From an uncultured Trueperaceae bacterium (GTDB lineage Bacteria > Deinococcota > Deinococci > Deinococcales > Trueperaceae): a stretch of DNA of 64,000 nucleotides. Under the pieces are notes generated by a model that was given only the letters and a program-made list of their open reading frames with translations, had not been told where the DNA came from and made no database searches. The stretch spans positions 192,001-256,000 of the forward strand of contig CAWFFU010000010.1 in assembly GCA_963815215.1 (NCBI GenBank), given 5' to 3'. This document shows, in pieces, positions 39,979 to 59,834 of this stretch; the first letter of the stretch is position 1, and the number at the start of each line of letters is the position of its first letter. Made by a program: the position numbers and the translations under genes.

Positions 39979-42720
39979 TCAGGCCACGCGTCCCAACCCC
40001 ACGGCCTTGCCCACCTGTCCGACCAACGTTGGAGCCAGGCTGGCGGACGCCACCAGTCCCCAGGCGGAGGCGTCGAGGGGGGTGAGCTCCAGCACCAGCC
40101 GAGCGCCGGGTATCGCCATGGCCGCCAGCAGCAGGCCGCTGCACAGTGCCAGCGCGCCCCACACCCACGGGTTGCGGGTGATCTCGTTCGCCAGCAGCGG
40201 GCTCCCCGGCTCACGCATGTCGAACACATGCCAGAGTTGAGCGAAGGCCAGCGTGAGGAACGACACCGTCACCGCCTCGGCCGGGCCCAGGCCGAGCGGG
40301 CCCAGCGCCAATGCGAACGCCGCCAGCACCGCCAGCGTGATCAGCAGGGCGTAGCCGGTGAGGCTGCGCCAGTGGCGGGCGGCCAGCACCGGCTCCGCCG
40401 GGTCGCGCGGGCGCCGCGCGAGGACGTCGGGGGCGCCCTCACCGGCCCCCAGCGCGAGTGCCGGGAACACGTCGGTGACCAGGTTGAGGAACAGGATCTG
40501 GAGCGGTGGAAGCAGGGGCATCGACGCCCCCAGGGCCGACGCCGTGCCGATGACCAGGATCTCGCTCAGGTTGCACGACAGCAGGTAGAGCACGAAGACG
40601 CGGATGGTGTCGAAGATGATGCGCCCCTGCTTGACGGCCTCGACGATGGTGCCGAAGGCGTCGTCCTTGAGGACCATGTCGGCCGCCTCGCGGGCCACCT
40701 CGGTGCCGTGGAGTCCCATCGCCACCCCGATATCGGCCTTCTTCAGGGCGGGGGCGTCGTTGACGCCGTCGCCCGTCATGGCGACGATGGCGCCGCGCGC
40801 CTGGTAGAGGCGGATGAGTTCGAGCTTCTGCTCCGGGGTGACGCGCGCCAGGATGTCGGCGCCGACCAGCGCGTCGTCCCCGTCGGCGCTGCGGTTCGCC
40901 AGCAGGCGGGCCATGTCGCTTCCCGCCACGACCTTCGCCGGGCCGGCCGTCAGGCCAACCGCCCGCCCGATGCTGGCGGCCGTCACCGCCTGATCGCCGG
41001 TCACCATCACCACCCGGATGCCCGCCTGATGGCAGCCCTCGATGGCGCTCGCGACGCCCTGCCGCGGCGGATCCTCGAGCCCGACCAGCGCCAGCAGGGT
41101 GAGGTCGCCGTAGAGCTCGGCCTGCTCCCGCTCCTCAGCGCGCGAGGCGAGGGCCAGCACGCGTAGACCGCGGCCCGCCAGCTCGCGGTTGCGCTCTTCC
41201 CAGAGCGCCCGTTCACGCGACTCCAGGTGGTGGCTGCCGTCGGCATGGGCGACCCGGGTGCAGGCTTGCAGGACGCTCTCCGGAGCGCCCTTCACGGCGA
41301 CGCGGTAGCGTCCGCCGGCGCCGCCGGCGCCGGCCTCGTGGAGCGTGCCCATCATCTTGTTGTCCGGATCGAACGCCACCTCCCGCACCTCGGGGTGACG
41401 GTCCAGGAGCGCCTCGCGCGTCACGCCGGCCGCTGCCGCCGCCCGCAGCAGGGCCACCTCGAGCGGATCGCCGACGCCGTGGCCGGACGCGCCGCCGAGC
41501 GCGGCGTTGTTGCACAGCGCTGCCACCTCGAGCGCGGCGCGCAGGTTCGGGAGCCGCTCGAGCGCGGCCGGCGCGCCGTCGAGCGTCAGGCCACCGCCCT
41601 GCCCGGACGGTTCGGCCCGCCCCTCGGCCAGCCACAGGCCTGCGACACTCAGGCGGTTCTCCGTGAGCGTGCCGGTCTTGTCCGTGAAGATGACGCTGGT
41701 GGCCCCCAACGTCTCGACGGCCGACAAGCGATTGACGAGGGCGTTGCGATCGGCCATGCGGCGCATGCCGCGGGCCAGCGTGATGGTGGCGATGATCGGC
41801 AACCCTTCGGGCACCGTCGCGACCGCCAGCGCGATGGCGGTCTCCAGGATCAGCAGCCACGGTTTGCCGGCGAGGAGACCGGTGACGCCGATGACGGCGG
41901 CGACGACCAGCGTGACCCACACCAGGCGCTGGCCGAGACGGTCGAGGCGGTGTTCCAACGGCGTGGCCTCGTCCTCGGCCTCGGCCACGAGCTGCGAGAT
42001 GCGTCCCAGCTCGGTCCCCATGCCGGTGGCGATCACCACGCCCTCGCCCGATCCGCGACTGATCGAGGTTCCCTTGTAGAGCATGCAGGCGCGCTCGGCC
42101 AGCGGGGCGTCGGCGGCGACCGCCCGGGCGCGCTTGCCGACGGGCAGCGACTCGCCGGTGAGTGCCGACTCGTCGGCCTGAAGCTTCGACGCCTGCAGCA
42201 GCCGCACGTCGGCGGTGACGACGTCGCCGCCCTCCACCAGCACGATGTCGCCCGGAACCAGCGCGTCGGCCTCGACGGTGTCGAGCCGGCCCTCTCGGCG
42301 GACGGTGGCGTGCACCCGGCCGAGACTGCGCAGCGCCTCCATCGACCGCACCGCGCGCAGCTCGGTCATGAAACCGATGGCGGCGTTCACCGCCAGCACC
42401 ACCATCACCGCCAGCGCTTCCGCCCACTGTCCGAACAGTGCCGACAACAGCGCCGCAGCGGCCAACAGGGCCGCCAGCATGCTTCGGAACTGCGCCACCA
42501 GGATCTGCCCGCGGCTGCGCCGCAGTGCCTCGCGCAACGCGTTCGGGCCGTAACGCTCGAGCCGGCGCGCGACTTCGTGCGGGTCGAGGCCCGAGCGGGG
42601 ATCGGCGTCGAGGGCGGACAGGACCGCCTCGGATGGCAGGGCCCAGGGCGCGGCCACGGCTCCGCCCACCGATCCGGGGTCGGAGGCGTCCCGGTCGGGA
42701 GGGATGCGGGTCGCGCTCAT
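39979..42720 (-). CDS. Cation-transporting P-type ATPase (type II, Ca2+-like)
   Basis: LTGES, PEGLP, DKTGTLT, KGAPE, MVTGD, TGDGVNDAPALK and NLVTD motifs. Confidence 0.95.
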   Translation of the reverse strand: MSATRIPPDRDASDPGSVGGAVAAPWALPSEAVLSALDADPRSGLDPHEVARRLERYGPNALREALRRSRGQILVAQFRSMLAALLAAAALLSALFGQWAEALAVMVVLAVNAAIGFMTELRAVRSMEALRSLGRVHATVRREGRLDTVEADALVPGDIVLVEGGDVVTADVRLLQASKLQADESALTGESLPVGKRARAVAADAPLAERACMLYKGTSISRGSGEGVVIATGMGTELGRISQLVAEAEDEATPLEHRLDRLGQRLVWVTLVVAAVIGVTGLLAGKPWLLILETAIALAVATVPEGLPIIATITLARGMRRMADRNALVNRLSAVETLGATSVIFTDKTGTLTENRLSVAGLWLAEGRAEPSGQGGGLTLDGAPAALERLPNLRAALEVAALCNNAALGGASGHGVGDPLEVALLRAAAAAGVTREALLDRHPEVREVAFDPDNKMMGTLHEAGAGGAGGRYRVAVKGAPESVLQACTRVAHADGSHHLESRERALWEERNRELAGRGLRVLALASRAEEREQAELYGDLTLLALVGLEDPPRQGVASAIEGCHQAGIRVVMVTGDQAVTAASIGRAVGLTAGPAKVVAGSDMARLLANRSADGDDALVGADILARVTPEQKLELIRLYQARGAIVAMTGDGVNDAPALKKADIGVAMGLHGTEVAREAADMVLKDDAFGTIVEAVKQGRIIFDTIRVFVLYLLSCNLSEILVIGTASALGASMPLLPPLQILFLNLVTDVFPALALGAGEGAPDVLARRPRDPAEPVLAARHWRSLTGYALLITLAVLAAFALALGPLGLGPAEAVTVSFLTLAFAQLWHVFDMREPGSPLLANEITRNPWVWGALALCSGLLLAAMAIPGARLVLELTPLDASAWGLVASASLAPTLVGQVGKAVGLGRVA

Positions 42721-42962
42721 GACACCAGCCTAACGGCGCGGCGCCGGAGCCGGCCGGGACGCCCGCATTGCCGGGACGGCGCCCGGGCGGACCGGTTCCG
42801 CTGCCCCCCGACCGCCGCGAGCGGCCGCGCACTGCCGGGCCCCGCAGGCGTGTCGTCCGGGAGGCAGGCCCGGGCGCGCTCGCTCGGGTAGGCTCTACAG
42901 CGCCGGCATCGCGTCACGAACGACCCGTCCGCGGCCGTTGCCATCGAAGGAGGCGGTTGTCC

Positions 42963-43961
42963 ATGCAGTATCGCTCTCTCGGTTCCTCCGGACTGCGCGT
43001 ATCGGCCCTGTCGTTCGGCGCCTGGGTCACCTTCGGTGACCAGATCGGCGAGGACACGGCCTACGACATGATGAAGGCCGCCATCGACGCCGGCGTGAAC
43101 TTCTTCGACAACGCCGAAGCCTACTCGGCCGGCAAGGCCGAGACGATGATGGGCAACGTCATCAAGCGGGCCGGCTGGAAGCGCTCCGACCTGGTGCTGT
43201 CCACCAAGATCTTCTGGGGCGGGCCCGGCCCGAACGACCGGGGCCTGAGCCGCAAGCACATCATCGAGGGCACCAGCGCCGCCCTGAAGCGCCTGCAGAC
43301 CGACTACGTCGATCTGATCTTCTGTCACCGTCCCGACCGCTCCACCCCCATCGAGGAGACGGTGCGGGCCATGAACTACCTGATCGACCAGGGCATGGCG
43401 TTCTACTGGGGCACCAGCGAGTGGACCGCCGAGGAGATCCGCGAGGCGCACGAAGTGGCGCGCCGCGAGCATCTGGTCGGGCCCACCATGGAGCAGCCGC
43501 AGTACAACATGCTCCACCGTGAACGCGTCGAGCGCGAGTACGCGCGCCTCTACGACGCGTTCCAGCTCGGTCTGACGGTCTGGAGTCCGCTGGCCAGTGG
43601 GATCCTCACCGGCAAGTACGATGAGGGCTTCCAGGAGGGCACGCGCTTCGGGCTCGAGGGCTACGAGTGGCTGCGCCAGCGGCTGGAGTCCGAGCAGGGG
43701 ATGCGCGAGCGCGAGAGTGTCAGGAACCTCAAGCCGATCGCCGACGATCTCGGCATCAGCCGCGCGCAGCTGGCGTTGGCCTGGGCGCTGAAGAACCCCA
43801 ATGTGAGCACCGTCATCACCGGCGCGTCGCGCGCCGAGCAGGTCACCGAGAACATGAAGGCCGTCGACGCGGCCGACAAGATCACGCCCGACGTGATGGC
43901 GACCATCGACGAGGTGCTGGGCAACAAGCCGGCCGCGCTGGAGGCTTTCGGGCGCGATTGA
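42963..43961 (+). CDS. Aldo/keto reductase (Kv-beta-like subfamily)
   Basis: [32 protein letters not shown] and WSPLASG motifs. Confidence 0.93.
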
Positions 43962-43999
43962 TCCCGCCTTCGCCGCCCGCGCCAGGCGGTCTCGATACG

Positions 44000-44045
44000 C
44001 ACCATCCGGGCCCGTCCGCACCTTCGCGGACGGGCCCGGATGGTG
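44000..44045. terminator. 20-bp perfect hairpin between convergent genes (likely bidirectional terminator)
   Basis: CACCATCCGGGCCCGTCCGC-accttc-GCGGACGGGCCCGGATGGTG. Confidence 0.75.
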
Positions 44046-44143
44046 GACGCCGGCGGGACCGCTCCGTCCGATCCGCGCCTCGGTACGTCGCGCCGGCCCG
44101 CGCCGTGGGGTCGGCCAGGTGCGCCCCGCGCGCTACCCGTGGT

Positions 44144-45490
44144 TCAGGGAGCGGTCGTGAACGTCGACTCCTTGGACGAGGTGGACCAGCTCGGCATGTC
44201 CGGCCCTGCGATCGAGATCGGCCCGGACCCTCCGGCGAACATCCCTTCGAGCTCCAGCAAGGGACCCACCATCCCGGCCGGACCGGCCGCGGCGTCCATC
44301 GACGCGAAGGGCCCTACGGCCTGGACCGAGAAGGCGTAACCCGCGCCATTCGGGAGCGCCCTGTTGATGGCGGTGAGATCCGGGAGGGTCGTCGAGGTAT
44401 CGGTCGTGACGATGTAGAGCTGGGTCCCGGTCCCGGTCGGCTGGAGCGCCACCAGGTAGACCGATCCCGCCAGCGCCGTCCAGCTGAAGGTGGTGCCGGG
44501 AGCCACGTTCGTGGCTCCGGAGGCGGGCGCGGTGGGCATGGCGACGTCGGGCAGGATGAGGGAGGCCGACGGGTTCGGCGCCGTCACGGCGTCCCACGCT
44601 GCGGTGGAGTCGCCCGCACCGTCGCTCGCCGCCGCGGCCAGTCCGTGACTGATGCCGCTGGCGATCGGCACCATGGTGTTCGAGAACGAGCCGGGCGGGG
44701 TGGCGTTCGCAAGCGGGAGCCCCACGAGGGCGCCGGCCGAGGCCGGTCCGAACCGGATCACCGCACGGCCGTCGTTGAGCGTGTAGCCCGATGGCGCCGT
44801 CAGGCTCCCACTCAGGGCCCCTGTCGAGACGGAGCCGGCGGGGATGGTGACGCCCGTGAGCGCGTCACCGTCATGCAAGGTGACGTCGGTCGAGCCGTAG
44901 CCCGTGTAGCTGGTCGGGTTGCCACTGCCGTCGACGATGGCGCGGATGCCGTAGAGCGTGATGTGCAGTGGATCGGTCGTGCTCCACCGGACCGTGCCGG
45001 GCCCGATGGTCGAGCTGCCGGAGGCGCCGCCCGCGCCACCGAACGCGATCGCGGAGCCGCCTGGGAACATGGCACCGACCTCGGTCGGCTGGAACGGAGC
45101 GGTGCCGATCGTGCCGGCGACGGTCGCCTGGTGGCCGGGCGAGACCCCCAAGACCTGGACGGTCGGGTCGGTCCTCGTCAGGCCCTGGTAGACCCAGACC
45201 TCGGAGTTGCCCGGGAAGCTCAGGGTGACGTCGTAGGGCGTGTGGACGTCCGCTACCGTGAAGGTCCCGTCGGTTGCGGTGCTCGTGACCTTGCCGTCGA
45301 CGAGGACGTTGGCGTTGGCGATGGGGCTGAAGGTGTCGATCACCCGCCCTTGCACGGTGATGACCGACGGCGCCGTTGGTCCGGCGCAGCCCGTCAGGAG
45401 CGTCAGGGTCGCGAGGACTGCGAAGCTCGCGATCGCCAGTGGCGAGCGGATGACTCTGGGGGAGCAAGACGAGCGTGGCTGGTCGGGCAT
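44144..45490 (-). CDS. Putative lipoprotein, Thr/Gly-rich beta-sandwich (carboxypeptidase-regulatory-like N domain)
   Basis: LLTGC lipobox; VQGRVID..PIANANV..TATDGTFTV..PYDV..VYQGLTRTDPT; GGAGG RBS. Confidence 0.75.
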   Translation of the reverse strand: MPDQPRSSCSPRVIRSPLAIASFAVLATLTLLTGCAGPTAPSVITVQGRVIDTFSPIANANVLVDGKVTSTATDGTFTVADVHTPYDVTLSFPGNSEVWVYQGLTRTDPTVQVLGVSPGHQATVAGTIGTAPFQPTEVGAMFPGGSAIAFGGAGGASGSSTIGPGTVRWSTTDPLHITLYGIRAIVDGSGNPTSYTGYGSTDVTLHDGDALTGVTIPAGSVSTGALSGSLTAPSGYTLNDGRAVIRFGPASAGALVGLPLANATPPGSFSNTMVPIASGISHGLAAAASDGAGDSTAAWDAVTAPNPSASLILPDVAMPTAPASGATNVAPGTTFSWTALAGSVYLVALQPTGTGTQLYIVTTDTSTTLPDLTAINRALPNGAGYAFSVQAVGPFASMDAAAGPAGMVGPLLELEGMFAGGSGPISIAGPDMPSWSTSSKESTFTTAP

Positions 45491-45574
45491 GCGCACCTCC
45501 GGAGGGGTGGTCGGCGGCACCGCTCGAACCGGTCGGGGCACGAGGCAGGACGCGGGCACGACCCCCACCTAACC

Positions 45575-45622
45575 AGGATGGCAGGGCACCGTCTAGCCTG
45601 CGTCTAGCTTGCGTCTAGCCTG
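45575..45622 (-). promoter_or_regulatory. SARP-type promoter: 3 x CTAGACG at 11-bp period, 9 nt, -10 CATCCT
   Basis: + strand CGTCTAG at 45590, 45601 and 45612; AGGATG at 45575-45580. Confidence 0.75.
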
Positions 45623-45631
45623 CGCCCGACG

Positions 45632-47137
45632 TCACCAGTTCCGCAGCGTCTCGACCAGCAGGCGCACCCCGAAGCCGGTCGCCCCCGCCGGGCGGTAGCC
45701 GTCGGCGCGGTCGCGCAGCACCATGCCGGCGATGTCCAGGTGGGCCCAGGGGTAGGCCACGAACTCTTTCAGGAAGGCGGCCGAGGTGCCGACCCCGCCG
45801 TTGCGGGCGCCGGCGTTCTGGATGTCGGCGATCTTCGAGTCGATGGACTCGCGGTAATCGTCGTAGAGCGGCAGCGGCCACACGCGCTCGTGCGTCGCCG
45901 TGCCCGCGCGCTCGAGCCGTCGGCCGAGCGCCTCGTCGTTGGAGAACACCCCCGCCGCGACCCCCTTGCCGAGTGCCACCACGCACGAGCCGGTGAGGGT
46001 GGCGAGGTCGATGACGGCGTCGGGCCGGAAGCTCTGGGCGTGGGCCAGGGCGTCGGCGAGCGCCAGGCGCCCCTCCGCATCGGTGCTGAGGACCTCGATG
46101 CTGACGCCGTTGCTCGCCACCAGCACGTCCGAGGGGCGGTAGGCGGCGCCGTCGGGCATGTTCTCGACGCAGGGGCAGATGCCGACCAGATGCAGCGGCA
46201 GCTCGAGCGCAGCGGCGGCCTGCATGGCGCCGAGCACGGCCGCTGCGCCGCCCATGTCGCTCTTCATGGGGATCATGCCTTCGTGCGTCTTCAGGGACAG
46301 GCCGCCGGAGTCGAACGTCACGCCCTTGCCCACCAGCACCACGGTGGGCAGGTCGGAGGCCTCGGGGTTGTGCTCGAGCACGATGAAGGCCGGCTCGTTG
46401 CGGCTCCCCTGGGCCACCGCCAGGAAGGCGCCCATCGAGCGCTGCTGGGCCCAGGCTCGGTCGCCGACCTCGATACGAAGGCCGTGGCGCTCGGCGACGG
46501 CACGCGCGGTGTCGGCCAGGTGGGCGGGACCGGCGACGTTCGGGGGGCGGTTGACGAGGTCGCGGGCCAGCGCCACGCCCCCGGCGACGGCCTCGGCGAC
46601 CGCTGCGCCCCGTCGCAGGGCATCCAGCCGGTCGGCGTCCCGCTCCACCAGCACGATCGCGCTCAGCTCGCTGGGAGACTTCTGGGGGTGCTTCCAACCC
46701 GCGAAGCGGTACGCGGCCAGCAGGCTGCCCTCGGCGGTAGCCTGAGCGGCCGCCTCGGCATCGATCCCGCCGGCCCCAGCGCCGTGGACCACCGTCGCCA
46801 GGCTGCCGCCGCCGAGCTCCAGCGCGCGCTGCACGGCCGCAGCCGCAGCGTGGCGAGCGGCCTCCGCATCGAACGTCGCCTCGGGTCCCAGGCCGGTCAC
46901 GATCACGCGCTTGGCCGGCATGGACCCACGAGGATAGAGCACCGTGGTCTCGCCACGGGCGCCGCTGGCATCGCCGGCGGCGAGGAGCTCCCGGAGCGCT
47001 CCCTGGAGGGCGGCGTCGACGGCGCCGGTGGCGCCGGTGGGCTCGCGTGTGCCCTCGAACAGGTTGACGACGACGGTGTCGGCTTCGACGTTCCGGATGT
47101 CGGCTTGGCGGATCTCCACTCGCATGACGGCCTCCAC
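45632..47137 (-). CDS. pepA: Leucyl aminopeptidase (M17)
   Basis: VGKGVTFDSGG, MKSDMGG, STDAEGRL, ATLTG and WAHLDIAG motifs. Confidence 0.93.
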   Translation of the reverse strand: MEAVMRVEIRQADIRNVEADTVVVNLFEGTREPTGATGAVDAALQGALRELLAAGDASGARGETTVLYPRGSMPAKRVIVTGLGPEATFDAEAARHAAAAAVQRALELGGGSLATVVHGAGAGGIDAEAAAQATAEGSLLAAYRFAGWKHPQKSPSELSAIVLVERDADRLDALRRGAAVAEAVAGGVALARDLVNRPPNVAGPAHLADTARAVAERHGLRIEVGDRAWAQQRSMGAFLAVAQGSRNEPAFIVLEHNPEASDLPTVVLVGKGVTFDSGGLSLKTHEGMIPMKSDMGGAAAVLGAMQAAAALELPLHLVGICPCVENMPDGAAYRPSDVLVASNGVSIEVLSTDAEGRLALADALAHAQSFRPDAVIDLATLTGSCVVALGKGVAAGVFSNDEALGRRLERAGTATHERVWPLPLYDDYRESIDSKIADIQNAGARNGGVGTSAAFLKEFVAYPWAHLDIAGMVLRDRADGYRPAGATGFGVRLLVETLRNW

Positions 47138-47227
47138 AGGCGGACGATACCGCGCGCCGGCCCGGGCGGCGGGCGGCGTCGCGCGGGTGCTTCCGCGGCG
47201 TGGGGCCGTCCCCTATCCTGGAGCCCG

Positions 47228-48295
47228 ATGCTCATACGCCCCGACGAGCTCTATCCGGAAGGCGCAGGCGCGGCGGAACGGACGCTGATCGACGTGCGCT
47301 CGCCCAGGGAGGTGGCGCGTGGCGCCATGCCCGGCAGCCACGCCCTGCCGCTGATGAGCGACCGCGAGAGGCACGAGGTCGGCATCCGCTACAAGGAGGC
47401 CGGCCAGGAAGCCGCCATCGCGCTGGGGTACGAGCTGGCCGGGCCGCATCTGCCCGGCCGCATCGAGGCGTGGCGCGGAGCGTGCGCGGGTGGCCCGGCC
47501 GCGGTGGCGTGCTGGCGCGGTGGCCTACGCAGCGAGCTGGCGCTGTCGTTCATCGATCGGGGCGACGTGGCGCGGGTGGCGGGCGGGTACAAGGCGCTGC
47601 GCCGTCACGTGATGGAGGCGCTGCCCCGTTCGTTGGGCCGCAAGCGCCTGGTGGTCCTGACGGGGCTCACCGGCTCCGGCAAGACGCGCCTGCTGCGTGC
47701 CCTGCCGGCCGACGGCGGCCTGCAGGTGCTCGATCTGGAGGGTGCGGCGCGCCACCGCGGCAGCGCCTTCGGGGCCGAGGACGTCCCGCAGCCCAGCCAG
47801 CAGACCTTCGAGAACGCGCTCGCGACCGAGCTGCTGCTCAGCCCGGCCGAGCGTCTGGTGGTGGAGGACGAGTCTCGCTACGTCGGACGTCGAACGCTAC
47901 CCGACGGACTGATGGAGGCCATGCGCGTGGCACCGCTGGTGGTGCTCGAGACGCCCATGGCGGAGCGCGTCACCCACATCGTCGAGGAGTACGTGCTGGC
48001 GATGGCGCGGCGCCACGGTGTGCGGGCCGCGCGCGAGCGGCTCGAGCACGACACCCGGCGCATCCGCAAGCGCCTCGGCGGTGGCCGCACCGACGGCGTG
48101 GTGGCGGCGCTGCACGCCGCCGAGCAGGCGGACGCCTGGTTCGAGCCCTGCGTCCATCGCTGGTGGGTGCAGACGTTGCTCGAGCACTACTACGACCGCC
48201 TCTACCGCAAGGCGATCGAACGGCACGACCGGCCCGTCGCCATCCGCGGCGACGCCGACGCGGTGACCGACTACCTGCGGAGCGGTCCTGCGTGA
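47228..48295 (+). CDS. mnmH: tRNA 2-selenouridine(34) synthase
   Basis: Rhodanese IDVRSP, CWRGGLRS, GGYKA, P-loop GLTGSGKT, DLEG.A.HRGSAFG, QPSQ..FEN and VEDES motifs. Confidence 0.92.
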   Translation: MLIRPDELYPEGAGAAERTLIDVRSPREVARGAMPGSHALPLMSDRERHEVGIRYKEAGQEAAIALGYELAGPHLPGRIEAWRGACAGGPAAVACWRGGLRSELALSFIDRGDVARVAGGYKALRRHVMEALPRSLGRKRLVVLTGLTGSGKTRLLRALPADGGLQVLDLEGAARHRGSAFGAEDVPQPSQQTFENALATELLLSPAERLVVEDESRYVGRRTLPDGLMEAMRVAPLVVLETPMAERVTHIVEEYVLAMARRHGVRAARERLEHDTRRIRKRLGGGRTDGVVAALHAAEQADAWFEPCVHRWWVQTLLEHYYDRLYRKAIERHDRPVAIRGDADAVTDYLRSGPA

Positions 48296-48321
48296 GCCGT
48301 ATCCGCCTCCGAGGAGCGAGC

Positions 48322-49377
48322 ATGGAACCAGAACCGGCCGTCGCGCCGATCCGCCTGACGCACACGGTGAAGAAGGGTGGTTGTGCCGCCAAGATCGCCG
48401 CGGGGACCCTGAGCGACCTGCTGCGTTCGCTGCCGCGCCAGAGCCACCCGGACCTGCTGGTGGGCAACGACATGCTCGACGACGCGGCAGTGTGGCGCGT
48501 CTCGAACGACGTTGCGATGATCCAGACGCTGGATTTCTTCACCCCGATCCTCGACGACCCCAGCGACTTCGGTGCGGTGGCGGCGGCCAACGCACTCTCC
48601 GACGTGTTCGCCATGGGGGGTACGCCGACCACGGCCCTCACGATCCTGGCCTACCCCCTCGGCATCCTGCCCGATGAGGTCCTGGGCAGCCTGATGGCCG
48701 GGGCGGTGGCCGCCATCAACGACGCCGGCGCCTTCCTGGTGGGCGGCCACTCCATCGAGGACGACACCCTCAAGCTGGGCTTCAGCGTGACCGGACTCGT
48801 CCACCCGGACCGGCTCTGGAGCAACACCGGCGCGCGCCCCGGCGACGTGCTGATCCTCACCAAGGCCGTCGGCACCGGCACGCTCGCGGGCGCGCTCAAG
48901 AACGATGAGATCGCACCCGAGGTCATGGCGCCGGCCATCGCCTCGATGCGACAGGTCAACCGTCTCGACCTGGACGACGGTCTCCACGCCGCTGTCCACG
49001 CCGCCACCGATGTGACCGGCTTCGGCGTGCTGGGGCATGCGCTTCACGTGGCTGAAGGCTCGGGCGTGACGCTGCGCATCGACACCGGCGCGTTGCCATT
49101 GCTGCCCGGCGCCGAGGACACGCTCAGGCGCGGAATCGTCACCAAGGCGCATACCAGCAATGACCGTTATGTGCGGGAGCGGGTGAGCGGTCGCGAGCGC
49201 GTGGACGGGGTGCGCTGGCTGACTGCGGTGGATCCGCAGACGAGCGGAGGCCTGTTGCTCAGCGTTGCCCCGGAGCGCGCTGCGGAGCTGCTGGCAGTCG
49301 TGGGCGAGCGGTTCCCGGCGGCGCGGGTGATGGGTGAGGTGACGGTGCGAGGCGCGCGGCCGCTCGAGGTGGTCTGA
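48322..49377 (+). CDS. selD: Selenide, water dikinase (Cys form)
   Basis: GGCAAK, DDAAV, QTLDFFTP, ANALSDV.AMGG, GGHS, TDVTGFG and DPQTSGGLL motifs. Confidence 0.94.
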   Translation: MEPEPAVAPIRLTHTVKKGGCAAKIAAGTLSDLLRSLPRQSHPDLLVGNDMLDDAAVWRVSNDVAMIQTLDFFTPILDDPSDFGAVAAANALSDVFAMGGTPTTALTILAYPLGILPDEVLGSLMAGAVAAINDAGAFLVGGHSIEDDTLKLGFSVTGLVHPDRLWSNTGARPGDVLILTKAVGTGTLAGALKNDEIAPEVMAPAIASMRQVNRLDLDDGLHAAVHAATDVTGFGVLGHALHVAEGSGVTLRIDTGALPLLPGAEDTLRRGIVTKAHTSNDRYVRERVSGRERVDGVRWLTAVDPQTSGGLLLSVAPERAAELLAVVGERFPAARVMGEVTVRGARPLEVV

Positions 49378-49389
49378 CCGGGCGCGCGC

Positions 49390-49590
49390 TCACGGCTCGC
49401 CCCCCTCGTCGGTGACGATGCCGCGCAGGGCGATGAAGTCGGCCAGATCCTTGGCGGACGTGAAGTACGCAGCGGCACCGCTGGCGACGTCGCGCACCGA
49501 GCCGCGCAGGGCGGGCGGGCCGGACGAGGCGGGCTCGTGCCACACGCGCACGACGAACACCCACTGCTTGCGTCTGCCGGCATCGTCCAC
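49390..49590 (-). CDS. Conserved-looking 66-aa hypothetical protein
   Basis: GGGAGG RBS before GTG; compact FVVRVW..LRGSV.DV.SG...YF....L..F pattern; own promoter upstream. Confidence 0.75.
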   Translation of the reverse strand: MDDAGRRKQWVFVVRVWHEPASSGPPALRGSVRDVASGAAAYFTSAKDLADFIALRGIVTDEGGEP

Positions 49591-49622
49591 GTCCGCCCTC
49601 CCAGCGTTCGACTCCCGCGCCC

Positions 49623-49659
49623 ACTATGGCGGGGCGGCGTCTAGGCAGCGTCTAGCGCC
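49623..49659 (-). promoter_or_regulatory. SARP-type promoter: 2 x CTAGACG at 11-bp period, 9 nt, -10 CATAGT
   Basis: + strand CGTCTAG at 49638 and 49649; ACTATG at 49623-49628. Confidence 0.75.
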
Positions 49660-49682
49660 GCACCCGGCACGCCCTGCGGCCG

Positions 49683-52600
49683 TCACGGCCAGGGAGCGCC
49701 GTCGACGGCCGCCGCGATCTCACGGTTGAACTCCATAGCCAGGAACGCAGCGTGCGCGGGCGCGTCGTCGATCGCCTCGGCCATCGTGCGCAGGCGCTCG
49801 CCGGCGCGTCGCGCCAGCGCCCGCGCGGCCGCCTCCTCGCCCTGGGCGTGACGGACGCGCGCCGCGACCCACGCGACCTGTTGCGGGTGGAGCAGCTCGT
49901 CGTCGCGCTTCTCCAGCAGCTCCAGGAGCTCGTCGGCAGCGGCCGACGCCTGCTCCAGGTGACCCTCCCCGAGGTAGGCCAGCGCAAGCTCGCACAGCGC
50001 GTTGGCGGAGCTCGCGTCACGTCCCAGGCGCCGCTCGATGGCCAGCGCCTGGCACAGGTGCTCGATGGCGTCGGCGCGTGCCCCCAGGTGGCGCTCGGCG
50101 TCGCCGAGATTGCTGAGGGCGGAGGCCGCCAGCAGATCGTTGCCGGACTCCCGCGCCAGCGCCAGTGCGCGCAGCGCCGCGCGGCGTGCGTCCTCGTGGC
50201 GGTGCCCGTATAGCAGAGCCGATGAGCCGTTCAGCACGCACAGCGTCTCGCCACGTCGGTCGCCGAGCCGCGCGAACAAGCGCTCGGCGCGCTCCAGTCG
50301 CTCGGCCGCGGCGGCGTGATCGCCCAGCCGCAGGTCGAGCACGCCGCGGTTGAGCGAGACCGCGGCCAGGCCCTGGGGCCTCTCGAGTTCCCGGTAGAGT
50401 CTCTCGGCGACGCGGTAGTGCGCCTTCGCCTCCGCCAGGCGCGTCAGGCGGGCGGCGCTCACCGCGCGGTACTGGTGGGCGTCGGCCTCCAGGCTGCGGT
50501 CGCCTGTGTCGAGGGCGAGACGGAGCATGCGGGCGGCGAGGTCGAAAGCGTCCTCATAGGCTTCCTCGCCGATGGCGGCCTGCAGGGCGGCGCGCACGGC
50601 CTCCGCCACGAGCTCGGGCTCGTCGGCTGCGCCTGCCTGCTGGGCCGCGTCGAGCCGCTGCCGGACCTGTTCGGGCCGGCCGGCCGCGAGCGCTACGTGG
50701 ACCCCGAGACAGGCTGTGGCGAGGCTCAGGCGCCGGTCGTGGACCCGCTCGGCCAGCGCCGTGGCTTCGCTCAGGCGCTGTTCGGCGGCCGATGGGTTGC
50801 CCAGTGCCAGATCGTAGCGGGCGCGCAGCAGCGCCGAGCGCGCCAGCCACGCTGGACGGCCGTCGGCGGTTGCGCGGTGCGCCAGGCGCTCCAGGACCTC
50901 CGCTTCGGCGGCGCGTTGGCCCAACTCGCGCAGCAGCGCTACCCGCCGGTCATCGGCATCGAAGGACGCCTGTTCGTCGCCAAGCGCTTCTGCCAGGGCG
51001 CTCATGGCGTCGAGCTGGAGGCGCTGCTGCTCGCGGTCCCCGCGCCGGCGTGCGGCGTCCTCGGCCAGCCGGTGCAGCTCGATGCGCAGCCGCGGATCGT
51101 GCGCCAGCGTCAACGACCAGGAGGCCAGGCTGCGCGCCTCTTCGCCGGCGCCCGCCTCCAGAGCCTCGCGGGCCGCCCGTAGCCCGTGCCGGGCGGCCCG
51201 ATCGGGCTCACCCCCGCGGTCGAAGTGCCTGGCCAGCGTGGCGGCGCTCGCGTCCGACGTGCCGGCGCGCTCCAGCGCCTGCGCGGCGCGGCGATGGTAG
51301 CGGGCGCGGGCCGAGGGGTCGACGCTCCGGTAGATGGCCTCGCGCATGAGCTGATGGCCGAAGGTGAAGGAACCGGCGCGCCGTTCGCGCACCAGGCGGG
51401 CGTCGAGCAAGAGGTCCAGGGCGTCGAGGGTCTCGCGCTCGTTCCAGGCCAGTACGTCGCGCACCGTTTCGAGGCGGAAGCTCTCGCCCACCACGGCCGC
51501 CGCCCCCGCGAAGGTGCGCGCTTCGGGGGCGAGGCGCTCCAGGCGCGCGGTGACCCGGCGGCGCACGCCGTCTGGGACCACTTCCGACCAGCCCGATCCG
51601 GTGCGCGGCTGCATCGGGGCGCCGGGCGCGGCGGTGGCGTCGTCTCCGCCGGTGTCGGCGGCCGCCTCGTGGAGCAGCTCCGAGATCAGCAGCGGATTGC
51701 CGGCGCTGGCTGCTTCCAGCGCCGCCACCACCTCGGGCGCGACCGGCGCCGGCTCGAGCCGCGCCAGGAGTGTCGCGATGACCGCCGTGTCGAGCCCGGC
51801 GAGCGCGATCGCATCGAGGGAGCCGGCCTCCTCCAGCCGGCGTCGCAGGGCGCGCAGCGGATGGTCCGGTCCGAGGTGATCGTCGCGGTAGGTCGCGACG
51901 ATCAACAGCGGGGCGCCACCGGCGCGCCGCGCGAGGTGCTCGAGCAGGGCCGTGCTCGCTTCACCGGCGCCGTGCAGATCCTCCAGCACCAGCAGTAGGG
52001 GACGTGTGCCCGCCAGGTCGAGCAGCGCACGGCCGACGGCATGGAAGAGGCGGGCGCGCTCCCGGTCGGGCGGCAGCTCCGGGAGCGGCGGTCCGGCAGG
52101 CGACGCCGGTGCCGCTGCCGGCAGCGCCCAGGCGAGCACCCGTCGCCACGGAGCGCTCCTGTCGCCGGCGCTGACCAACAGGTCGAAGACCGGACGCAGC
52201 GCCTCGGCTATCGCCTGGTACGGGCTCGCCTCCGGCTCGGAAGTGCCCCCCACCAGGACCCTGCCTTCGTCCGTCTCCGCCCGCTGCGCGAGCCGCCGTA
52301 GCAGCCTGCTCTTGCCGATCCCGGCGGGCCCTGCCAGCAGCACCAGGCCGCCGCGGCCGGCACGGGCGCGGTCCCAGCGTTCGCTCAGCGCCGCGAGCTC
52401 GCGCGCGCGTCCGGCGAAGGGGAGTAGCGGCGGAGCGCCGGCGCGGGCGGGTGGCGCCGCGCGTGGTGGGTCCAGCTCGCGCACCAGCGCCTCGAACAGC
52501 GCGCGCGTCTGCTCCATGGGCTCCACGCGGAGCTCGTTGGCCAGCAGCTCGGAGAACCGTTCGTAGACGGCCAGCGCCCCCGCCCGGTCGCCGGCCCCGT

Positions 52601-53177
52601 GACGGACGCGCATCGCCAGCCGCACGGCGTCCTCGCGCAGGGGATCCTCCCGGAGCAGCCGGTCCAGCACCGCCAGCGCTTCCGGACCGCGGCCGGTCTC
52701 GAGGTGGCGTTCGGCCAGCTCCAGCAGCACGCCGAGCAGCACGGCACGCAGGCGTTCGCGTTCGACGAGCAGCCACTCGTCGTCGTGGCCCACCAGGAGA
52801 TGTCCGGTGTAGAGGGCGGCGGCGCGCTCGACGTCTCCGCGGGCGGCCGCCTTTTCGAACGCGCATGCGTCGACCCACAGGTCGGCGTCGCGGTCGAGTC
52901 CGACGCGGGAGCCGTCGGTGAGCACCCACGTGCCGGCTTCAGGATCGGGCAGCGCCTGCTTGAGGTAGTGGAGGTGCCGTCGGAGGTTGGTGCGCGCCTC
53001 GTCGGGGTCGCTGTCGGGCCACAGCGCCTCGGCGACCGTGCGCCGGTCCTGCGGCGTCGGGTGCAGCGCCAGGTAGGCCAGCAACGGACCGGTGCGGGGG
53101 GGAGCGGAGAGTGGGAGGGGCCGGTTGTCGACAGCGACCCTGAGCGGGCCGAACAGATACACCCGTATCCTTCCCAC
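49683..53177 (-). CDS. SARP/AfsR-like regulator: wHTH + BTAD + STAND/AAA ATPase + TPR
   Basis: LFGPL..LLAYLAL..LWPD..NLRRHL..VD..FE..LYTG.LL..W...RERL..DPLRE (BTAD); Walker A GPAGIGKS; Walker B LVLEDLH; C-terminal TPR-like helices; GTG 53177 with GGAGG. Confidence 0.9.
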   Translation of the reverse strand: MGRIRVYLFGPLRVAVDNRPLPLSAPPRTGPLLAYLALHPTPQDRRTVAEALWPDSDPDEARTNLRRHLHYLKQALPDPEAGTWVLTDGSRVGLDRDADLWVDACAFEKAAARGDVERAAALYTGHLLVGHDDEWLLVERERLRAVLLGVLLELAERHLETGRGPEALAVLDRLLREDPLREDAVRLAMRVRHGAGDRAGALAVYERFSELLANELRVEPMEQTRALFEALVRELDPPRAAPPARAGAPPLLPFAGRARELAALSERWDRARAGRGGLVLLAGPAGIGKSRLLRRLAQRAETDEGRVLVGGTSEPEASPYQAIAEALRPVFDLLVSAGDRSAPWRRVLAWALPAAAPASPAGPPLPELPPDRERARLFHAVGRALLDLAGTRPLLLVLEDLHGAGEASTALLEHLARRAGGAPLLIVATYRDDHLGPDHPLRALRRRLEEAGSLDAIALAGLDTAVIATLLARLEPAPVAPEVVAALEAASAGNPLLISELLHEAAADTGGDDATAAPGAPMQPRTGSGWSEVVPDGVRRRVTARLERLAPEARTFAGAAAVVGESFRLETVRDVLAWNERETLDALDLLLDARLVRERRAGSFTFGHQLMREAIYRSVDPSARARYHRRAAQALERAGTSDASAATLARHFDRGGEPDRAARHGLRAAREALEAGAGEEARSLASWSLTLAHDPRLRIELHRLAEDAARRRGDREQQRLQLDAMSALAEALGDEQASFDADDRRVALLRELGQRAAEAEVLERLAHRATADGRPAWLARSALLRARYDLALGNPSAAEQRLSEATALAERVHDRRLSLATACLGVHVALAAGRPEQVRQRLDAAQQAGAADEPELVAEAVRAALQAAIGEEAYEDAFDLAARMLRLALDTGDRSLEADAHQYRAVSAARLTRLAEAKAHYRVAERLYRELERPQGLAAVSLNRGVLDLRLGDHAAAAERLERAERLFARLGDRRGETLCVLNGSSALLYGHRHEDARRAALRALALARESGNDLLAASALSNLGDAERHLGARADAIEHLCQALAIERRLGRDASSANALCELALAYLGEGHLEQASAAADELLELLEKRDDELLHPQQVAWVAARVRHAQGEEAAARALARRAGERLRTMAEAIDDAPAHAAFLAMEFNREIAAAVDGAPWP

Positions 53178-53721: not shown

Positions 53722-54543
53722 TCACGAGATCGGTCCCAGCCGCTCGATCTCCAGGGCGCGCCCGCCGCGCACCCGCACCAGCACCGCGCCGAGCTCCGCC
53801 GGTCCCTGCGCGAAGCCGCCGCGCCCGCGCACCGGACGGCGGTGCCGAAGGGCGTCCACGAAGACCTCCGGAGCGTAGCCCTGCATGCCGCCGCTCGGCC
53901 CCGTCATGCCGACGTCGCTGACGAAGGCGGTGCCGCCCGGCAGGACCCGCTCGTCACGCGTGGCCACGTGCGTGTGCGTGCCCAGCACGGCGGCGACCCG
54001 CCCGGCCACCGACCAGGCGAAGATCTGCTTCTCGCTGACCGACTCGCCGTGGAAGTCGACCAGCACAACGTCGACCGGGTCCTCGCTCCAGCGCTCGAGC
54101 AGCCGCACGAGCGCCTCGAAGGGGGGCCCGACCCCGGGCATGGCGGTCGCGCTGAGCAGGCTGACCACGCCCAGCCGGATCCCCGCGCGTTGAACGACCA
54201 CCGCGCCGCGCCCGGGCGCCTCGCCGGCGACGTTGAGCGGCCGCGCCACCTCGGGCTCGGCCAGGGCCGCCACCGTCTCGGCGCTGTCCCAGGAGTGGTT
54301 GCCGCCGGTGATGGCGTCGACACCGAGGGCGCGCAGGCGCTCCACGTCGTGCCGCGTCATGCCGGCGCCCGCCACCGGGTTCTCCCCCGTGAGCGAGGCG
54401 TTCTCGGCGTTGGCGACCACGAAGTCGGGGTGCAGCCGGCACCGCAGATCGGGGAGCATCTCGGCCAGCAGATCGAGGCCGGCGTCACCGACGATATCGC
54501 CGATGAACAGCAGGCGGGTGTCGCGTTCGGCGGGTACGGCCAT
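53722..54543 (-). CDS. YmdB-like metallophosphoesterase (2',3'-cyclic nucleotide phosphodiesterase family)
   Basis: LFIGDIVG, ANAEN, TGGNH.WD, DFHGE..SEK, GTHTHV and SDVGMTG motifs. Confidence 0.9.
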   Translation of the reverse strand: MAVPAERDTRLLFIGDIVGDAGLDLLAEMLPDLRCRLHPDFVVANAENASLTGENPVAGAGMTRHDVERLRALGVDAITGGNHSWDSAETVAALAEPEVARPLNVAGEAPGRGAVVVQRAGIRLGVVSLLSATAMPGVGPPFEALVRLLERWSEDPVDVVLVDFHGESVSEKQIFAWSVAGRVAAVLGTHTHVATRDERVLPGGTAFVSDVGMTGPSGGMQGYAPEVFVDALRHRRPVRGRGGFAQGPAELGAVLVRVRGGRALEIERLGPIS

Positions 54544-54615
54544 GCTCGAGGCCAGTGTCGCACGTCCCGACGCGTAAGAGTTTCGTGAACGCCGGCTCCT
54601 TACACTCCGGACACG

Positions 54616-56325
54616 ATGCGACGCCTGCTCTTCCTGGTCGCTCCCCCGATCTTCTGGTGTGCCTACGTGGTGGATTTCCCGTTTCTCTACGGCCACTTCG
54701 GTGACCACACGCGGCTGGTGGGGCTGATGCTGGTCGGGGTCACCGCATGGCTGTGGGGGACCCCCGGCGGACTGCTCAACGGCCTCATCGGGTTGGTGTT
54801 GAGCGAGGGCCTGGTGTCGGTGATGCACGGCGGCGCCTTCAACCTGCCCTCGATCACGGGCAACGACGACCTGTTCAAGGCGCTCGCCTTCGGCGGGGCG
54901 GGCCTGGGCTTCGGCTTCCTGCGCAGTGCACGCGACCAGATAGCGCACCATCGCAGCACCTTCGAGCTGGCTCAGCTCGACCCGTTGACCGGCCTGCTCA
55001 ACCGGGCGGGCTTCCAGGAGAAGCTCACCGAGGTGCTGGACGAGGCCCGCGAGGAAGGCACCCTGGTGGCCTTCCTGTTCGTCGACCTCGACCGCTTCAA
55101 GTTCGTCAACGACACCTACGGCCACGAGGTCGGGGACGCGCTCCTCATGGAGGTCGGCCGGGCGCTCCGCGACAACGTGCGCGAGGTGGACCTGGTGGGG
55201 CGGCTCGGTGGGGACGAGTTCACCGTGGCCCTGCTCCACCTCCACGACGCCAAGGACGCCAGCCTGGTAGCGCGCAACCTGGTGCGCGTGCTGAGCGCGC
55301 CGTTGTCGATCGACGACCGCGAGCTGCGCATCTCCGCCAGCGTCGGCGTCAGCCTCTTCCCGCGCGACGGCGACACCGTCGAGGCGCTGACCCGAAGCGC
55401 CGACACGGCCATGTATGAGGTCAAGGACGGCGGCAAGAACTCCTTCCACTTCTCCTCGATCGAGATGCGTACGCGCGTCAGCCGCAGGCTCGAGCTGGAG
55501 CGCGAGCTGCGCGACGCCATCACCAACCAGGAGTTCGAGCTGGTCTACCAGCCGCAGGTGGAGCTGGAATCGGGTCGGCTGGTGGCGTTCGAGGCGCTCT
55601 TACGTTGGACCAACCCGCAACTCGGCCGGGTCTCGCCCGGCGAGTTCATCCCGGTCGCGGAAGAGGCGGGTTCCATCGGCAAGCTCGGTCACTGGATCCT
55701 GCGCGAGGCCTGCTTCCAGTCGCGGGCCTGGCAGAAGGCGGGCCTGAGGCCGGTACGCATGGCGGTGAACGTGTCCACGCTGCAGTTCCGCCAATTCGGC
55801 TTCCTCGCCACCATCCAGGGCGCCCTGGCCGACAGCGGCATCGACCCGTCGCTCCTCGAGATCGAGATCACCGAGAGCGTGCTCGCCAAGGAGTACGAGC
55901 TGGCCATGAACACCGTCACGCGGCTCGGGCGCATGGGGGTCCGCACGGCGCTCGACGATTTCGGCACCGGGTACTCGTCGCTGGCGTACCTGCAGCACCT
56001 GCCCATCGCCAGCCTGAAGATCGACCAGTCGTTCGTGATGGCGCTCCACAACGGTCCCGGGATCGATCACGTCAGCGCCGCCCCGATCGTCGAGGCGATC
56101 GTTGCGATGGCCCACAAGCTGCGCAAGAAGATCGTCGCGGAGGGAGTCGAGACCGACGCCCAACGCCGCTTCCTGCTGAAGCTCGGGGTGGACTACGCCC
56201 AGGGTTTCCACTTCGCCAAGCCCCTGACGCGGCAGCGCGCCGAGCGCCTCCTCGAACGCAACGAGCGCGACCGCGTGCCGATCTTAGACGCCCAGGACGC
56301 CACCCCCCTGTTGCTGCTCGATTGA
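54616..56325 (+). CDS. Membrane-anchored GGDEF-EAL protein
   Basis: N-terminal TMs; DPLTGLLNR, REVD I-site, RLGGDEF; FEALLRW, DDFGTGYSSL, KIDQSF and EGVET. Confidence 0.94.
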   Translation: MRRLLFLVAPPIFWCAYVVDFPFLYGHFGDHTRLVGLMLVGVTAWLWGTPGGLLNGLIGLVLSEGLVSVMHGGAFNLPSITGNDDLFKALAFGGAGLGFGFLRSARDQIAHHRSTFELAQLDPLTGLLNRAGFQEKLTEVLDEAREEGTLVAFLFVDLDRFKFVNDTYGHEVGDALLMEVGRALRDNVREVDLVGRLGGDEFTVALLHLHDAKDASLVARNLVRVLSAPLSIDDRELRISASVGVSLFPRDGDTVEALTRSADTAMYEVKDGGKNSFHFSSIEMRTRVSRRLELERELRDAITNQEFELVYQPQVELESGRLVAFEALLRWTNPQLGRVSPGEFIPVAEEAGSIGKLGHWILREACFQSRAWQKAGLRPVRMAVNVSTLQFRQFGFLATIQGALADSGIDPSLLEIEITESVLAKEYELAMNTVTRLGRMGVRTALDDFGTGYSSLAYLQHLPIASLKIDQSFVMALHNGPGIDHVSAAPIVEAIVAMAHKLRKKIVAEGVETDAQRRFLLKLGVDYAQGFHFAKPLTRQRAERLLERNERDRVPILDAQDATPLLLLD

Positions 56326-57861: not shown

Positions 57862-57993
57862 GGGTCCGCGCCCTGCGTGGGGCGCGTCGTCCGGCGTAGG
57901 AAGAACGTGCGGGGGGGCGTGCTACACTAGCTCCTTGCGGGTCGCGCGCCATGCCGCGCGCGGGGGCGCAGCCGGCGTTCCGGATGACCGGTC

Positions 57994-58056
57994 CCAGGAC
58001 ACTTACCAGGTCATCACCTACCAGGACACCACCTACCAGGACACCACCTACCAGGA
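57994..58056 (+). repeat. 15-bp tandem repeat (CACCACCTACCAGGA-like) in the rpoD leader
   Basis: CCAGG(A/T) at 57994, 58006, 58021, 58036 and 58051. Confidence 0.9.
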
Positions 58057-58073
58057 CCAAACGGGGAGGGACG

Positions 58074-59834
<1,761 letters not shown>

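Follow-up and report, generated by a model that had tools for sequence, protein, structure and literature searches.

Here, we report an analysis of a 64,000-nt stretch of DNA (hereafter, the window) from an uncultured bacterium of the family Trueperaceae (Deinococcota) that encodes a large AfsR-type regulator containing a SARP domain, a 66-aa microprotein directly downstream of it, and, 4 kb off, an immunoglobulin (Ig)-like lipoprotein. The genes for the microprotein and the lipoprotein are each preceded by direct repeats of the heptamer CTAGACG with an 11-bp period, and via such repeats the regulator very probably switches on the microprotein and two or three lipoproteins, this one included. 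The repeats themselves are likely to be activator boxes at which the adjacent regulator drives SARP-dependent promoters. This assignment is built on sequence architecture, conservation, synteny, and the co-occurrence of boxes and regulator, from which we infer binding, activation, a signal, and a role for the microprotein.

The boxes as well as the regulator, microprotein, and lipoprotein genes are all located on the minus strand (Table 1). Box 1 begins 13 nt past the stop codon of the aminopeptidase gene pepA and is followed by a 9-nt spacer, GTGCCCTGC, and by the -10-like hexamer CATCCT at 45580-45575. Box 2 begins 27 nt past the stop codon of the regulator gene (49685-49683) and is followed by a spacer of the same length, CCGCCCCGC, and by CATAGT at 49628-49623. 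An earlier note on this DNA had described three and two copies of CTAGACG at an 11-bp period with a CATnnT hexamer 9 nt behind them at both sites, and the arrays proved to lie exactly where it had put them. Its placement of the second site right after the regulator gene and before a 66-aa open reading frame (ORF) likewise stands, as does that of the first site before a lipoprotein gene, which starts with ATG at 45490 and encodes an LTGC lipobox. The note had also remarked on the lack of an obvious -35 element, and a sigma-70 consensus scan of positions 42500-50000 finds no -35/-10 promoter. The spacing agrees with the rule for SARP promoters: with the repeat taken as TAGACGC, the last copy ends 8 nt before the hexamer.

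Table 1. Features of the regulator-microprotein-lipoprotein locus. Coordinates are positions in the window unless a contig is named.
Feature	Coordinates	Strand	Remarks
Box 1, three CTAGACG copies at an 11-bp period	45590..45618	-	Copies at 45618-45612, 45607-45601, 45596-45590
TGC + CATCCT, -10-like hexamer with extended -10-like TGn	45575..45583	-	Predicted transcription start ~45568
Box 2, two CTAGACG copies at an 11-bp period	49638..49655	-	Copies at 49655-49649, 49644-49638
-10-like hexamer CATAGT, 9 nt past box 2	49623..49628	-	Predicted transcription start ~49616
Site 3, two CTAGACG + 9 nt + GATGCT	contig C8:42130-42113	-	Third exact-pair locus of the genome
AfsR-type large SARP regulator gene	49683..53177	-	1164 aa from GTG 53177; stop codon within coordinates
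Microprotein gene, 66 aa, GTG start	49390..49590	-	GGGAGGG 5 nt before GTG; stop codon within coordinates
Target lipoprotein gene, 448 aa	44144..45490	-	ATG 45490 behind GGAGG; LTGC lipobox; stop codon within coordinates
M17 leucyl aminopeptidase gene (pepA)	45632..47137	-	Pfam Peptidase_M17 2e-117; stops just short of box 1
AIR-synthase-related (ThiL-like) gene	48478..49377	+	AIRS 7e-21, AIRS_C 3.7e-15, in frame 47200-49377; start taken as start of the Pfam match

The lone heptamer is not enriched in the window (6 copies observed vs 4.55 expected from shuffles). The whole assembly (3.32 Mb in 14 contigs, ~70% G+C) contains 57 copies of CTAGACG on both strands and four occurrences of the exact pattern CTAGACG-N4-CTAGACG at three loci, against a chance expectation of ~5e-4 phased pairs obtained by arithmetic from the 57 heptamers. 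At the third of these loci, site 3, a peptide-ABC permease gene has its stop codon just upstream, and ~150 nt downstream begins a gene whose product has an N-terminal lipoprotein signal (LLAGC). Allowing up to two mismatches adds seven matches genome-wide, all of them CTCGACG-like and without a -10-like hexamer behind, and none of the relaxed pairs in this genome (CTRGACG, TRGACG, RGACGC) has such a hexamer at the proper distance. Off-phase CTRGACG pairs are absent at N3 spacing and occur once at N5, and the backwards-read pattern, which served as a control, has no match in any of 10 genomes of the genus. The phased arrangement is, then, far from chance. An explanation in which the repeats are non-regulatory, whether chance or selfish short repeats or remnants of terminator regions, and the 66-aa ORF is spurious would account for the position of all three sites directly past the stop codon of an upstream gene; we give it next to no credence, given the numbers above, the direct orientation of the repeats, and a scan for terminator-like structures that flags nothing at the box sites.

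The regulator starts with GTG 53177 behind GGAGGGGG, in agreement with the starts of its orthologues, and consists of an OmpR-type winged helix-turn-helix (wHTH) with BTAD, a P-loop NOD ATPase, and TPR, in that order. Pfam matches to BTAD (2.6e-20), AAA_16 (5.1e-29), and TPR_12 (4e-8, residues 1033-1106), together with alignments to AfsR and EmbR, bear out the wHTH-BTAD-STAND ATPase-TPR architecture that the earlier note had read from the sequence. An end-to-end alignment pairs residues 17-253 of the long frame with the SARP domain of AfsR (8hvr_I, 8.5e-10), and the same region also aligns with EmbR (2fez_A, 3e-9); the alignment with full-length AfsR (8k60_I) spans residues 17-407, and the TPR of Pins/LGN match residues 934-1109 in a comparison with PDB sequences. 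The Walker A (GPAGIGKS) and Walker B (LLLVLED) motifs are invariant across seven orthologues of the regulator. Altogether, the genome encodes five SARP domains, one of which belongs to a paralogous SARP-NOD protein (contig C8:60199-62745, plus strand) with 38% identity to the regulator in the SARP domain.

We then consider conservation within the genus, represented by 10 genomes, namely this one (G000) and those of nine other species. An orthologue of the regulator is present in six of the nine, at 62-93% identity, and the best match in the remaining three has at most 34% identity. The exact box pattern is found in 7 of the 10 genomes, the same seven that encode the regulator, with no matches in the other three. 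The earlier note had suggested a scan of the genome and its relatives for the phased motif, and had held that the motif should recur at orthologous loci: apart from the third site in this genome, such a scan finds boxes in 7 of 7 regulator-bearing genomes of the genus. This pattern of presence and absence is supportive but weak alone, because the box-less genomes are incomplete and possibly form one subclade.

The 15 sites in the genus fall into three classes by downstream gene. Sites of the first class precede the orthologous Ig-like lipoprotein gene; six genomes show the exact pattern there, and the seventh, G007, has the variant CTAGACG-N4-CTGGACG-N9-CAGGCT, with a single A-to-G change in the heptamers; counting this variant, the box is kept before the orthologous gene in 6 of the 6 other regulator-bearing genomes. 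The 9-nt spacer in this class ends with TGC in six of six sites, and in G007 as well, resembling an extended -10. In the second class, the box is located between the regulator stop codon and the microprotein gene in six of seven genomes (the exact pair is found in 5 of the 6 other orthologous loci). The exception is G005 (L006), which has lost the box-2 interval; there, the regulator stop codon and the microprotein ATG overlap (TGATG), implying translational coupling instead of a separate promoter. The third class precedes a further lipoprotein gene, which in G006 and G008 encodes a beta-helix/DUF1565 lipoprotein. In this genome and at the genus sites, every target other than the microprotein is a lipoprotein. 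In G009, which lacks the regulator, a 42%-identical homologue of the lipoprotein has no such box in the 330 nt upstream of its gene.

Positions that were not part of the search pattern are conserved as well. All 15 genus sites have C directly behind the first heptamer; 14 of the 15 have A as the second base of the hexamer, and 14 have T as the sixth, with a one-base shift in the exception. The flanks vary across the 15 sites; the seven genomes also differ in the spacers but not in the heptamers, the C that follows, or the two hexamer bases A and T, which again argues against non-regulatory repeats.

Two of these genomes show additional heptamers. An extra pair, CTGGACG-N4-CTGGACC, is located ~60 nt upstream of the lipoprotein box in G007 (L192), so that this promoter may comprise four repeats in two groups. 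In G006 (L007/L027), the box-2 pair has a single further CTAGACG 112 nt upstream of it, and the full array is unreadable because the stretch between the lone heptamer and the pair is masked (N).

The 66-aa ORF behind box 2 is kept in all six orthologous loci of the genus, with nucleotide changes at codon positions 1, 2, and 3 numbering 207, 153, and 307, that is, with an excess at the third position. A profile search among 1.84 billion representatives retrieved 619 clusters at E<=1e-3, nearly all of 57-110 aa, from sources that include Chloroflexota, Anaerolineae, Herpetosiphon, Eremiobacteraceae, and Deinococcales. The relatives are all named 'hypothetical protein', and the microprotein matches no Pfam or NCBIfam model. 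The 60-90-aa family has the consensus hF[IV]VR[IVM]WxEP..WRGS..V.SG...YF.S..DL.DFI and was found in 100 of 301 sampled Deinococcota genomes, often in multiple copies (a tally that includes the unpublished genome G257, which was used for this count and for none of the other claims). The AlphaFold (AF2) model of the microprotein consists of three strands and a C-terminal helix, with a predicted local distance difference test (pLDDT) score of 83, and inspection of the 66-aa sequence reveals no internal repeat. A Foldseek search of the PDB with this model returned nothing at E<=1e-3, and the best Z score in a wide VIA-align search, 5.1, is within the stated noise of the tool, so that no clear structural relative emerged from these searches. 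A complex prediction for regulator residues 246-1164 with the microprotein gave scores of 0.14 and 0.05 against a mark of 0.32. GC-rich genomes abound in spurious open frames, but this one is conserved as a protein, with hundreds of relatives and a confidently predicted fold. The ORF of 66 aa is a genuine gene and belongs to a large unannotated family, and an artefact of chance or of non-coding sequence is excluded for practical purposes.

A second, divergent paralogue of the microprotein is encoded in this genome on contig C4:44735-44896 (plus strand; L038:8721-8897), directly downstream of a beta-helix/DUF1565 gene (L038:6776-8563). There is no SARP-domain match in the surrounding 18-kb locus, which covers ~8.7 kb upstream and ~9.1 kb downstream of the paralogue. 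The themes of beta-helix/DUF1565 and microprotein thus recur together, as the extra box targets in G006 and G008 are beta-helix/DUF1565 lipoproteins. The regulator-less genomes G004 and G009 each contain one weaker match to the microprotein profile.

Beyond the genus, the regulator and the microprotein again occur together. Among 80 metagenome loci that were retrieved with a Chloroflexota-like subset of the microprotein family, a SARP domain lies beside the microprotein homologue in 29 of the 36 that have at least 3.5 kb on one side, with E-values of 1e-19 to 1e-52 for the SARP domain and reaching 1e-78 for the NOD. These metagenome SARPs are far closer to the regulator in the window than the regulator's own paralogues are. 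The small gene is located directly downstream of the regulator, as in the window, directly upstream on the same strand, or divergently. For 40 microprotein homologues from other genera of Deinococcota, taken with 7 kb on each side, a SARP-domain match was found within 7 kb in 23 loci and a NOD match at the locus edge in two more; as a baseline, 2.2% of the genome studied here lies within 7 kb of one of its five SARP domains. In the preferred explanation, the microprotein is the ancestral cross-phylum companion of this regulator subfamily.

The box geometry, too, recurs in metagenomes. In 61 non-redundant regions upstream of metagenome microprotein genes, an exact 7-mer is repeated at offset 11 in 24 regions, whereas the other offsets between 8 and 25 give 0-5, and GACR-N7-GACR, with its 11-bp period, is present in 43 regions, compared with 0-2 for periods of 8-10 and 12-15. 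A TAnnnT hexamer follows 13 nt past the second GAC in these 43 regions, with T, A, and T in 36, 32, and 36 of them, respectively, and the distance in the window is identical. The consensus of the metagenome boxes is (T/G)(G/A)GACGC, and the core found in the window, TAGACGC, is also represented (L108, L117, L174). The helix region ARxNLRRHLHxL is common to the regulator in the window and the microprotein-linked metagenome SARPs with GACG boxes. SARPs beside more distant microprotein homologues, in other Deinococcota, have the helix NLRQxLxRL, and the repeats visible beside these differ (GTCACGC, GGTCACA, GCAAACGC). The recognition helix and the box type thus seem to co-vary across phyla.

In many of the metagenome microprotein leaders, the stretch from the -10 to the start codon contains a G+C-rich hairpin with a T-run behind it (L131, L134, L127, L128, L112, L162), as exemplified by GACCCTCT-AAAG-AAGAGGGTC-GTTTTGTTT. 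This arrangement looks like an intrinsic terminator or attenuator. The 26-nt microprotein leader in the window has neither hairpin nor T-run.

The fixed distance to the hexamer bears on how the regulator would act at the boxes. It could bind them and repress, or control read-through from the regulator gene, pepA, or the permease gene, either blocking it or acting as an anti-terminator. No terminator is apparent between the upstream stop codons and the boxes, AfsR is described as a repressor of some S. avermitilis targets (PMC10832544), and the microprotein ORF in G005, which overlaps the regulator stop codon, has no box at all. However, the -10-like hexamer keeps a constant distance to the box in 14 of the 15 sites of the genus and in 36 of the 43 from metagenomes, which is the geometry of activation with the box in the place of the -35, and the divergent and operon-first arrangements have no upstream gene from which read-through could come. 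Because the distance to the -10 is fixed, control by repression or read-through is less likely than activation, and we consider it quite improbable.

Several observations weigh against the assignment of the boxes to the adjacent regulator as activator sites. OmpR/PhoB-type response regulators use an identical repeat geometry, with heptamers at an 11-bp period just upstream of the -10. The paralogue on C8 has a recognition helix, NLRRELHHL, that resembles that of the regulator, is encoded 18 kb from site 3 on the same contig, and could bind some of the boxes, for example the C8 site. Completeness of the three box-less genomes of the genus is 70, 81, and 89%, and all three may belong to a single subclade. 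The invariance of the heptamers across the 15 genus sites is by construction, because the sites were found with the exact pattern, and the independent evidence among these sites consists of the flanking C and the hexamer bases only. Among the 40 loci from other Deinococcota genera, clear 11-bp repeats are present in only three, and offset 11 is not enriched there (3 vs 0-3 at other offsets). The 61 metagenome regions represent fewer than 61 independent lineages, because related pairs remain among them. Finally, the locus is detected in 20 metagenome sequencing runs of DNA and in no RNA run; the organism occurs in soil, sediment, and salt marsh.

Part of this list could be accommodated if the boxes were operators of another winged-helix regulator, either a response regulator of the OmpR/PhoB type or the SARP paralogue on C8, and the adjacent regulator were a mere neighbour. 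The position of site 3 behind a peptide-ABC permease gene would fit such an arrangement, and in Streptomyces, PhoP and AfsR are reported to share the afsS site (PMC10972967). Against it, box 2 is tied to the 3' end of the regulator gene in six of seven genomes, the box type tracks the recognition helix of the regulator across phyla, and the synteny of regulator and microprotein holds in 29 of the 36 metagenome loci with long enough flanks. No response-regulator or kinase gene is found among the open frames flanking the sites, a result that covers the flanks alone, as no genome-wide search for such regulators was made. Taken together, this explanation is unlikely, albeit more plausible than control by repression or read-through.

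We therefore return to activation by the adjacent regulator. Because the geometry equals that of AfsR at afsS, the sites can be interpreted as activator-dependent promoters of this regulator, and the AfsR initiation complex offers a template for how they would work. A signal would switch the regulator on, with the NOD-TPR part gating the response. SARP domains would then sit head-to-tail on the DNA, one per (C)TAGACGC repeat. With the hexamer at -12 to -7, the two 11-bp units CTAGACGCnnn would fall within one base of -40 to -19, where the SARP units could take over the role of the absent -35 in bringing in RNA polymerase. Three promoters would make up the regulon in this genome, those of the microprotein gene, the Ig-like lipoprotein gene, and the second lipoprotein gene on C8. 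By analogy, the microprotein might act back on the regulator as AfsS does on AfsR, which we regard as a tentative proposal, somewhat less likely to be right than wrong. More speculative still is the generalization that the microprotein is an obligatory small subunit or feedback factor of ancient AfsR-like STAND activators in Deinococcota, Chloroflexota, and other phyla, each driving it via GACGC boxes and gated by it.

The 448-aa lipoprotein has only a weak, sub-cut-off CarboxypepD_reg-like match in Pfam. Its AF2 model is all-beta (pLDDT 84), and Foldseek aligns it with chains of Ig/FN3-like domains in adhesins and pilins, with E-values down to 1.5e-6 and low template modelling (TM) scores. 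Homology between the two target lipoproteins of this genome is undetectable (BLASTP E 0.064). That the lipoprotein is exposed at the surface and that the microprotein acts as a partner, as put forward in the earlier note, are conjectures. An ORF at 42717-44021 (minus strand) was considered as a second gene of the lipoprotein operon and rejected, as it is the antisense frame of a plus-strand aldo/keto reductase gene.

The ThiL-like gene is convergent with the microprotein gene and ends at 49377. The other genes in the window include those for a thiolase, ABC transport, Ada, a TipAS-type MerR regulator, a P-type ATPase, a GGDEF-EAL protein, and 6-phosphogluconate dehydrogenase, and the frames of the window are otherwise housekeeping and signalling genes. 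None of the 111 open frames of at least 260 aa in the window belongs to a polyketide synthase (PKS), nonribosomal peptide synthetase (NRPS), or similar cluster, in accord with the description, in the earlier note, of a non-actinobacterial host (here, a member of Deinococci) with no biosynthetic cluster in view. On the 5' side of the regulator gene, there are a YmdB-like phosphoesterase gene (minus strand, in the region 53722-56322) and the GGDEF-EAL gene (54589-56322, plus strand); a primary sigma-70 gene is located at 57900-59831 (plus strand). Two long plus-strand frames, 35853-39197 and 47200-48400, one of them of 1115 aa, have no Pfam match at the thresholds used; the latter lies between pepA and the ThiL-like gene.

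The literature treats SARPs as regulators of actinobacterial antibiotic clusters, and a 2024 review describes them as 'exclusively found in actinobacteria' (PMC10972967). In the window, a compact, conserved circuit can be read from a Deinococcota sequence, with regulator, operator, -10, targets, and small companion gene all recognizable, and the trio of regulator, box, and microprotein recurs in metagenome contigs, with some of the microprotein relatives named as Chloroflexota and Eremiobacterota. The analysis provides a candidate operator, two to three copies of (C)TAGACGC, and three promoters for a class of regulators without known targets in this phylum, along with a functional hypothesis for a large unannotated microprotein family. 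It also points to a three-promoter system with no antibiotic cluster in which to ask what signal the NOD-TPR part of AfsR-type regulators senses and what the small partner does, two questions that are open for AfsR and AfsS too. Should the microprotein indeed be a small subunit or feedback factor that gates such regulators across phyla, the AfsR/AfsS logic would be older than antibiotic regulation and represent a sensor-amplifier circuit of bacteria in general, employed in this case to control cell-envelope lipoproteins.

The earlier note had called the design undescribed, a claim that does not stand, since the design matches that of AfsR and afsS as presented in PMC10936776 and PMC10832544, so far studied only in antibiotic-producing actinomycetes. 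According to the former account, SARPs bind direct repeats spaced by 11 or 22 bp, the 3' one of which lies 8 bp away from the -10; at afsS, the afs box occupies -40 to -19, and the -10 is a weak CACTGT; each AfsR protomer touches the first 8 bp of an 11-bp unit; and the SARP dimer replaces recognition of the -35, contacting sigma region 4, the beta flap, beta', and the alpha C-terminal domain (PMC10936776). The latter describes afsS as an AfsR-activated gene directly downstream of afsR that encodes a protein of 63-87 aa, defined by two to five copies of a short repeated motif, which binds AfsR with a dissociation constant (Kd) of 4.7 uM and raises its affinity for DNA (PMC10832544). The locus in the window and those of S. 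coelicolor and S. avermitilis share a large regulator with SARP, NOD, and TPR, a small gene directly downstream, two 11-bp repeat units at -40 to -19 that overlap the -35, a weak CAnnnT-type -10, and units with 8 conserved bp followed by 3 free ones. They differ in the host, here a member of Deinococci, and in the box, (C)TAGACGC vs CGTT(T/C)ATCG. Furthermore, the targets other than the microprotein are lipoprotein genes rather than regulators of antibiotic clusters, and in other phyla the small gene is often located upstream, in an operon with the regulator. The microprotein, with its predicted fold of three strands and a helix and without short internal repeats, is set apart by the description of AfsS; we consider it an analogue of AfsS and do not claim homology.

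Pathway-specific SARPs, such as ActII-ORF4, DnrI, RedD, and PimR, resemble the system in the window in that their heptamers recur every 11 bp and the 3' copy is ~8 bp away from the -10 (PMC10936776; PMC5930380 is also relevant to their heptameric repeats). These regulators are small or of the SARP-LAL type and are encoded inside biosynthetic clusters, in contrast to the NOD-TPR regulator described here, which has no cluster beside it and envelope proteins as its predicted targets. PhoB and PhoP, of the OmpR family, place head-to-tail winged helices on 11-bp-phased repeats that replace the -35, much like the boxes in the window. Unlike these proteins, the candidate binder has no receiver domain and contains BTAD, a NOD ATPase, and TPR. 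At afsS, PhoP overlaps the AfsR site (PMC10972967). Within Deinococcota, Deide_19260 of Deinococcus deserti is also a regulator with a SARP domain, whose targets are given as unknown (PMC3564903); it combines this domain with a CheY receiver, and it is not known from any description to have an operator, regulon, or small partner. Our literature search, in which subscription journals were thinly covered, found no SARP operator, regulon, or companion microprotein for Deinococcota or Chloroflexota or otherwise outside actinomycetes. Relative to these systems, the regulator class and the promoter logic are known already, and what is new is the phylum, an unrelated and unnamed microprotein family, and a lipoprotein regulon.

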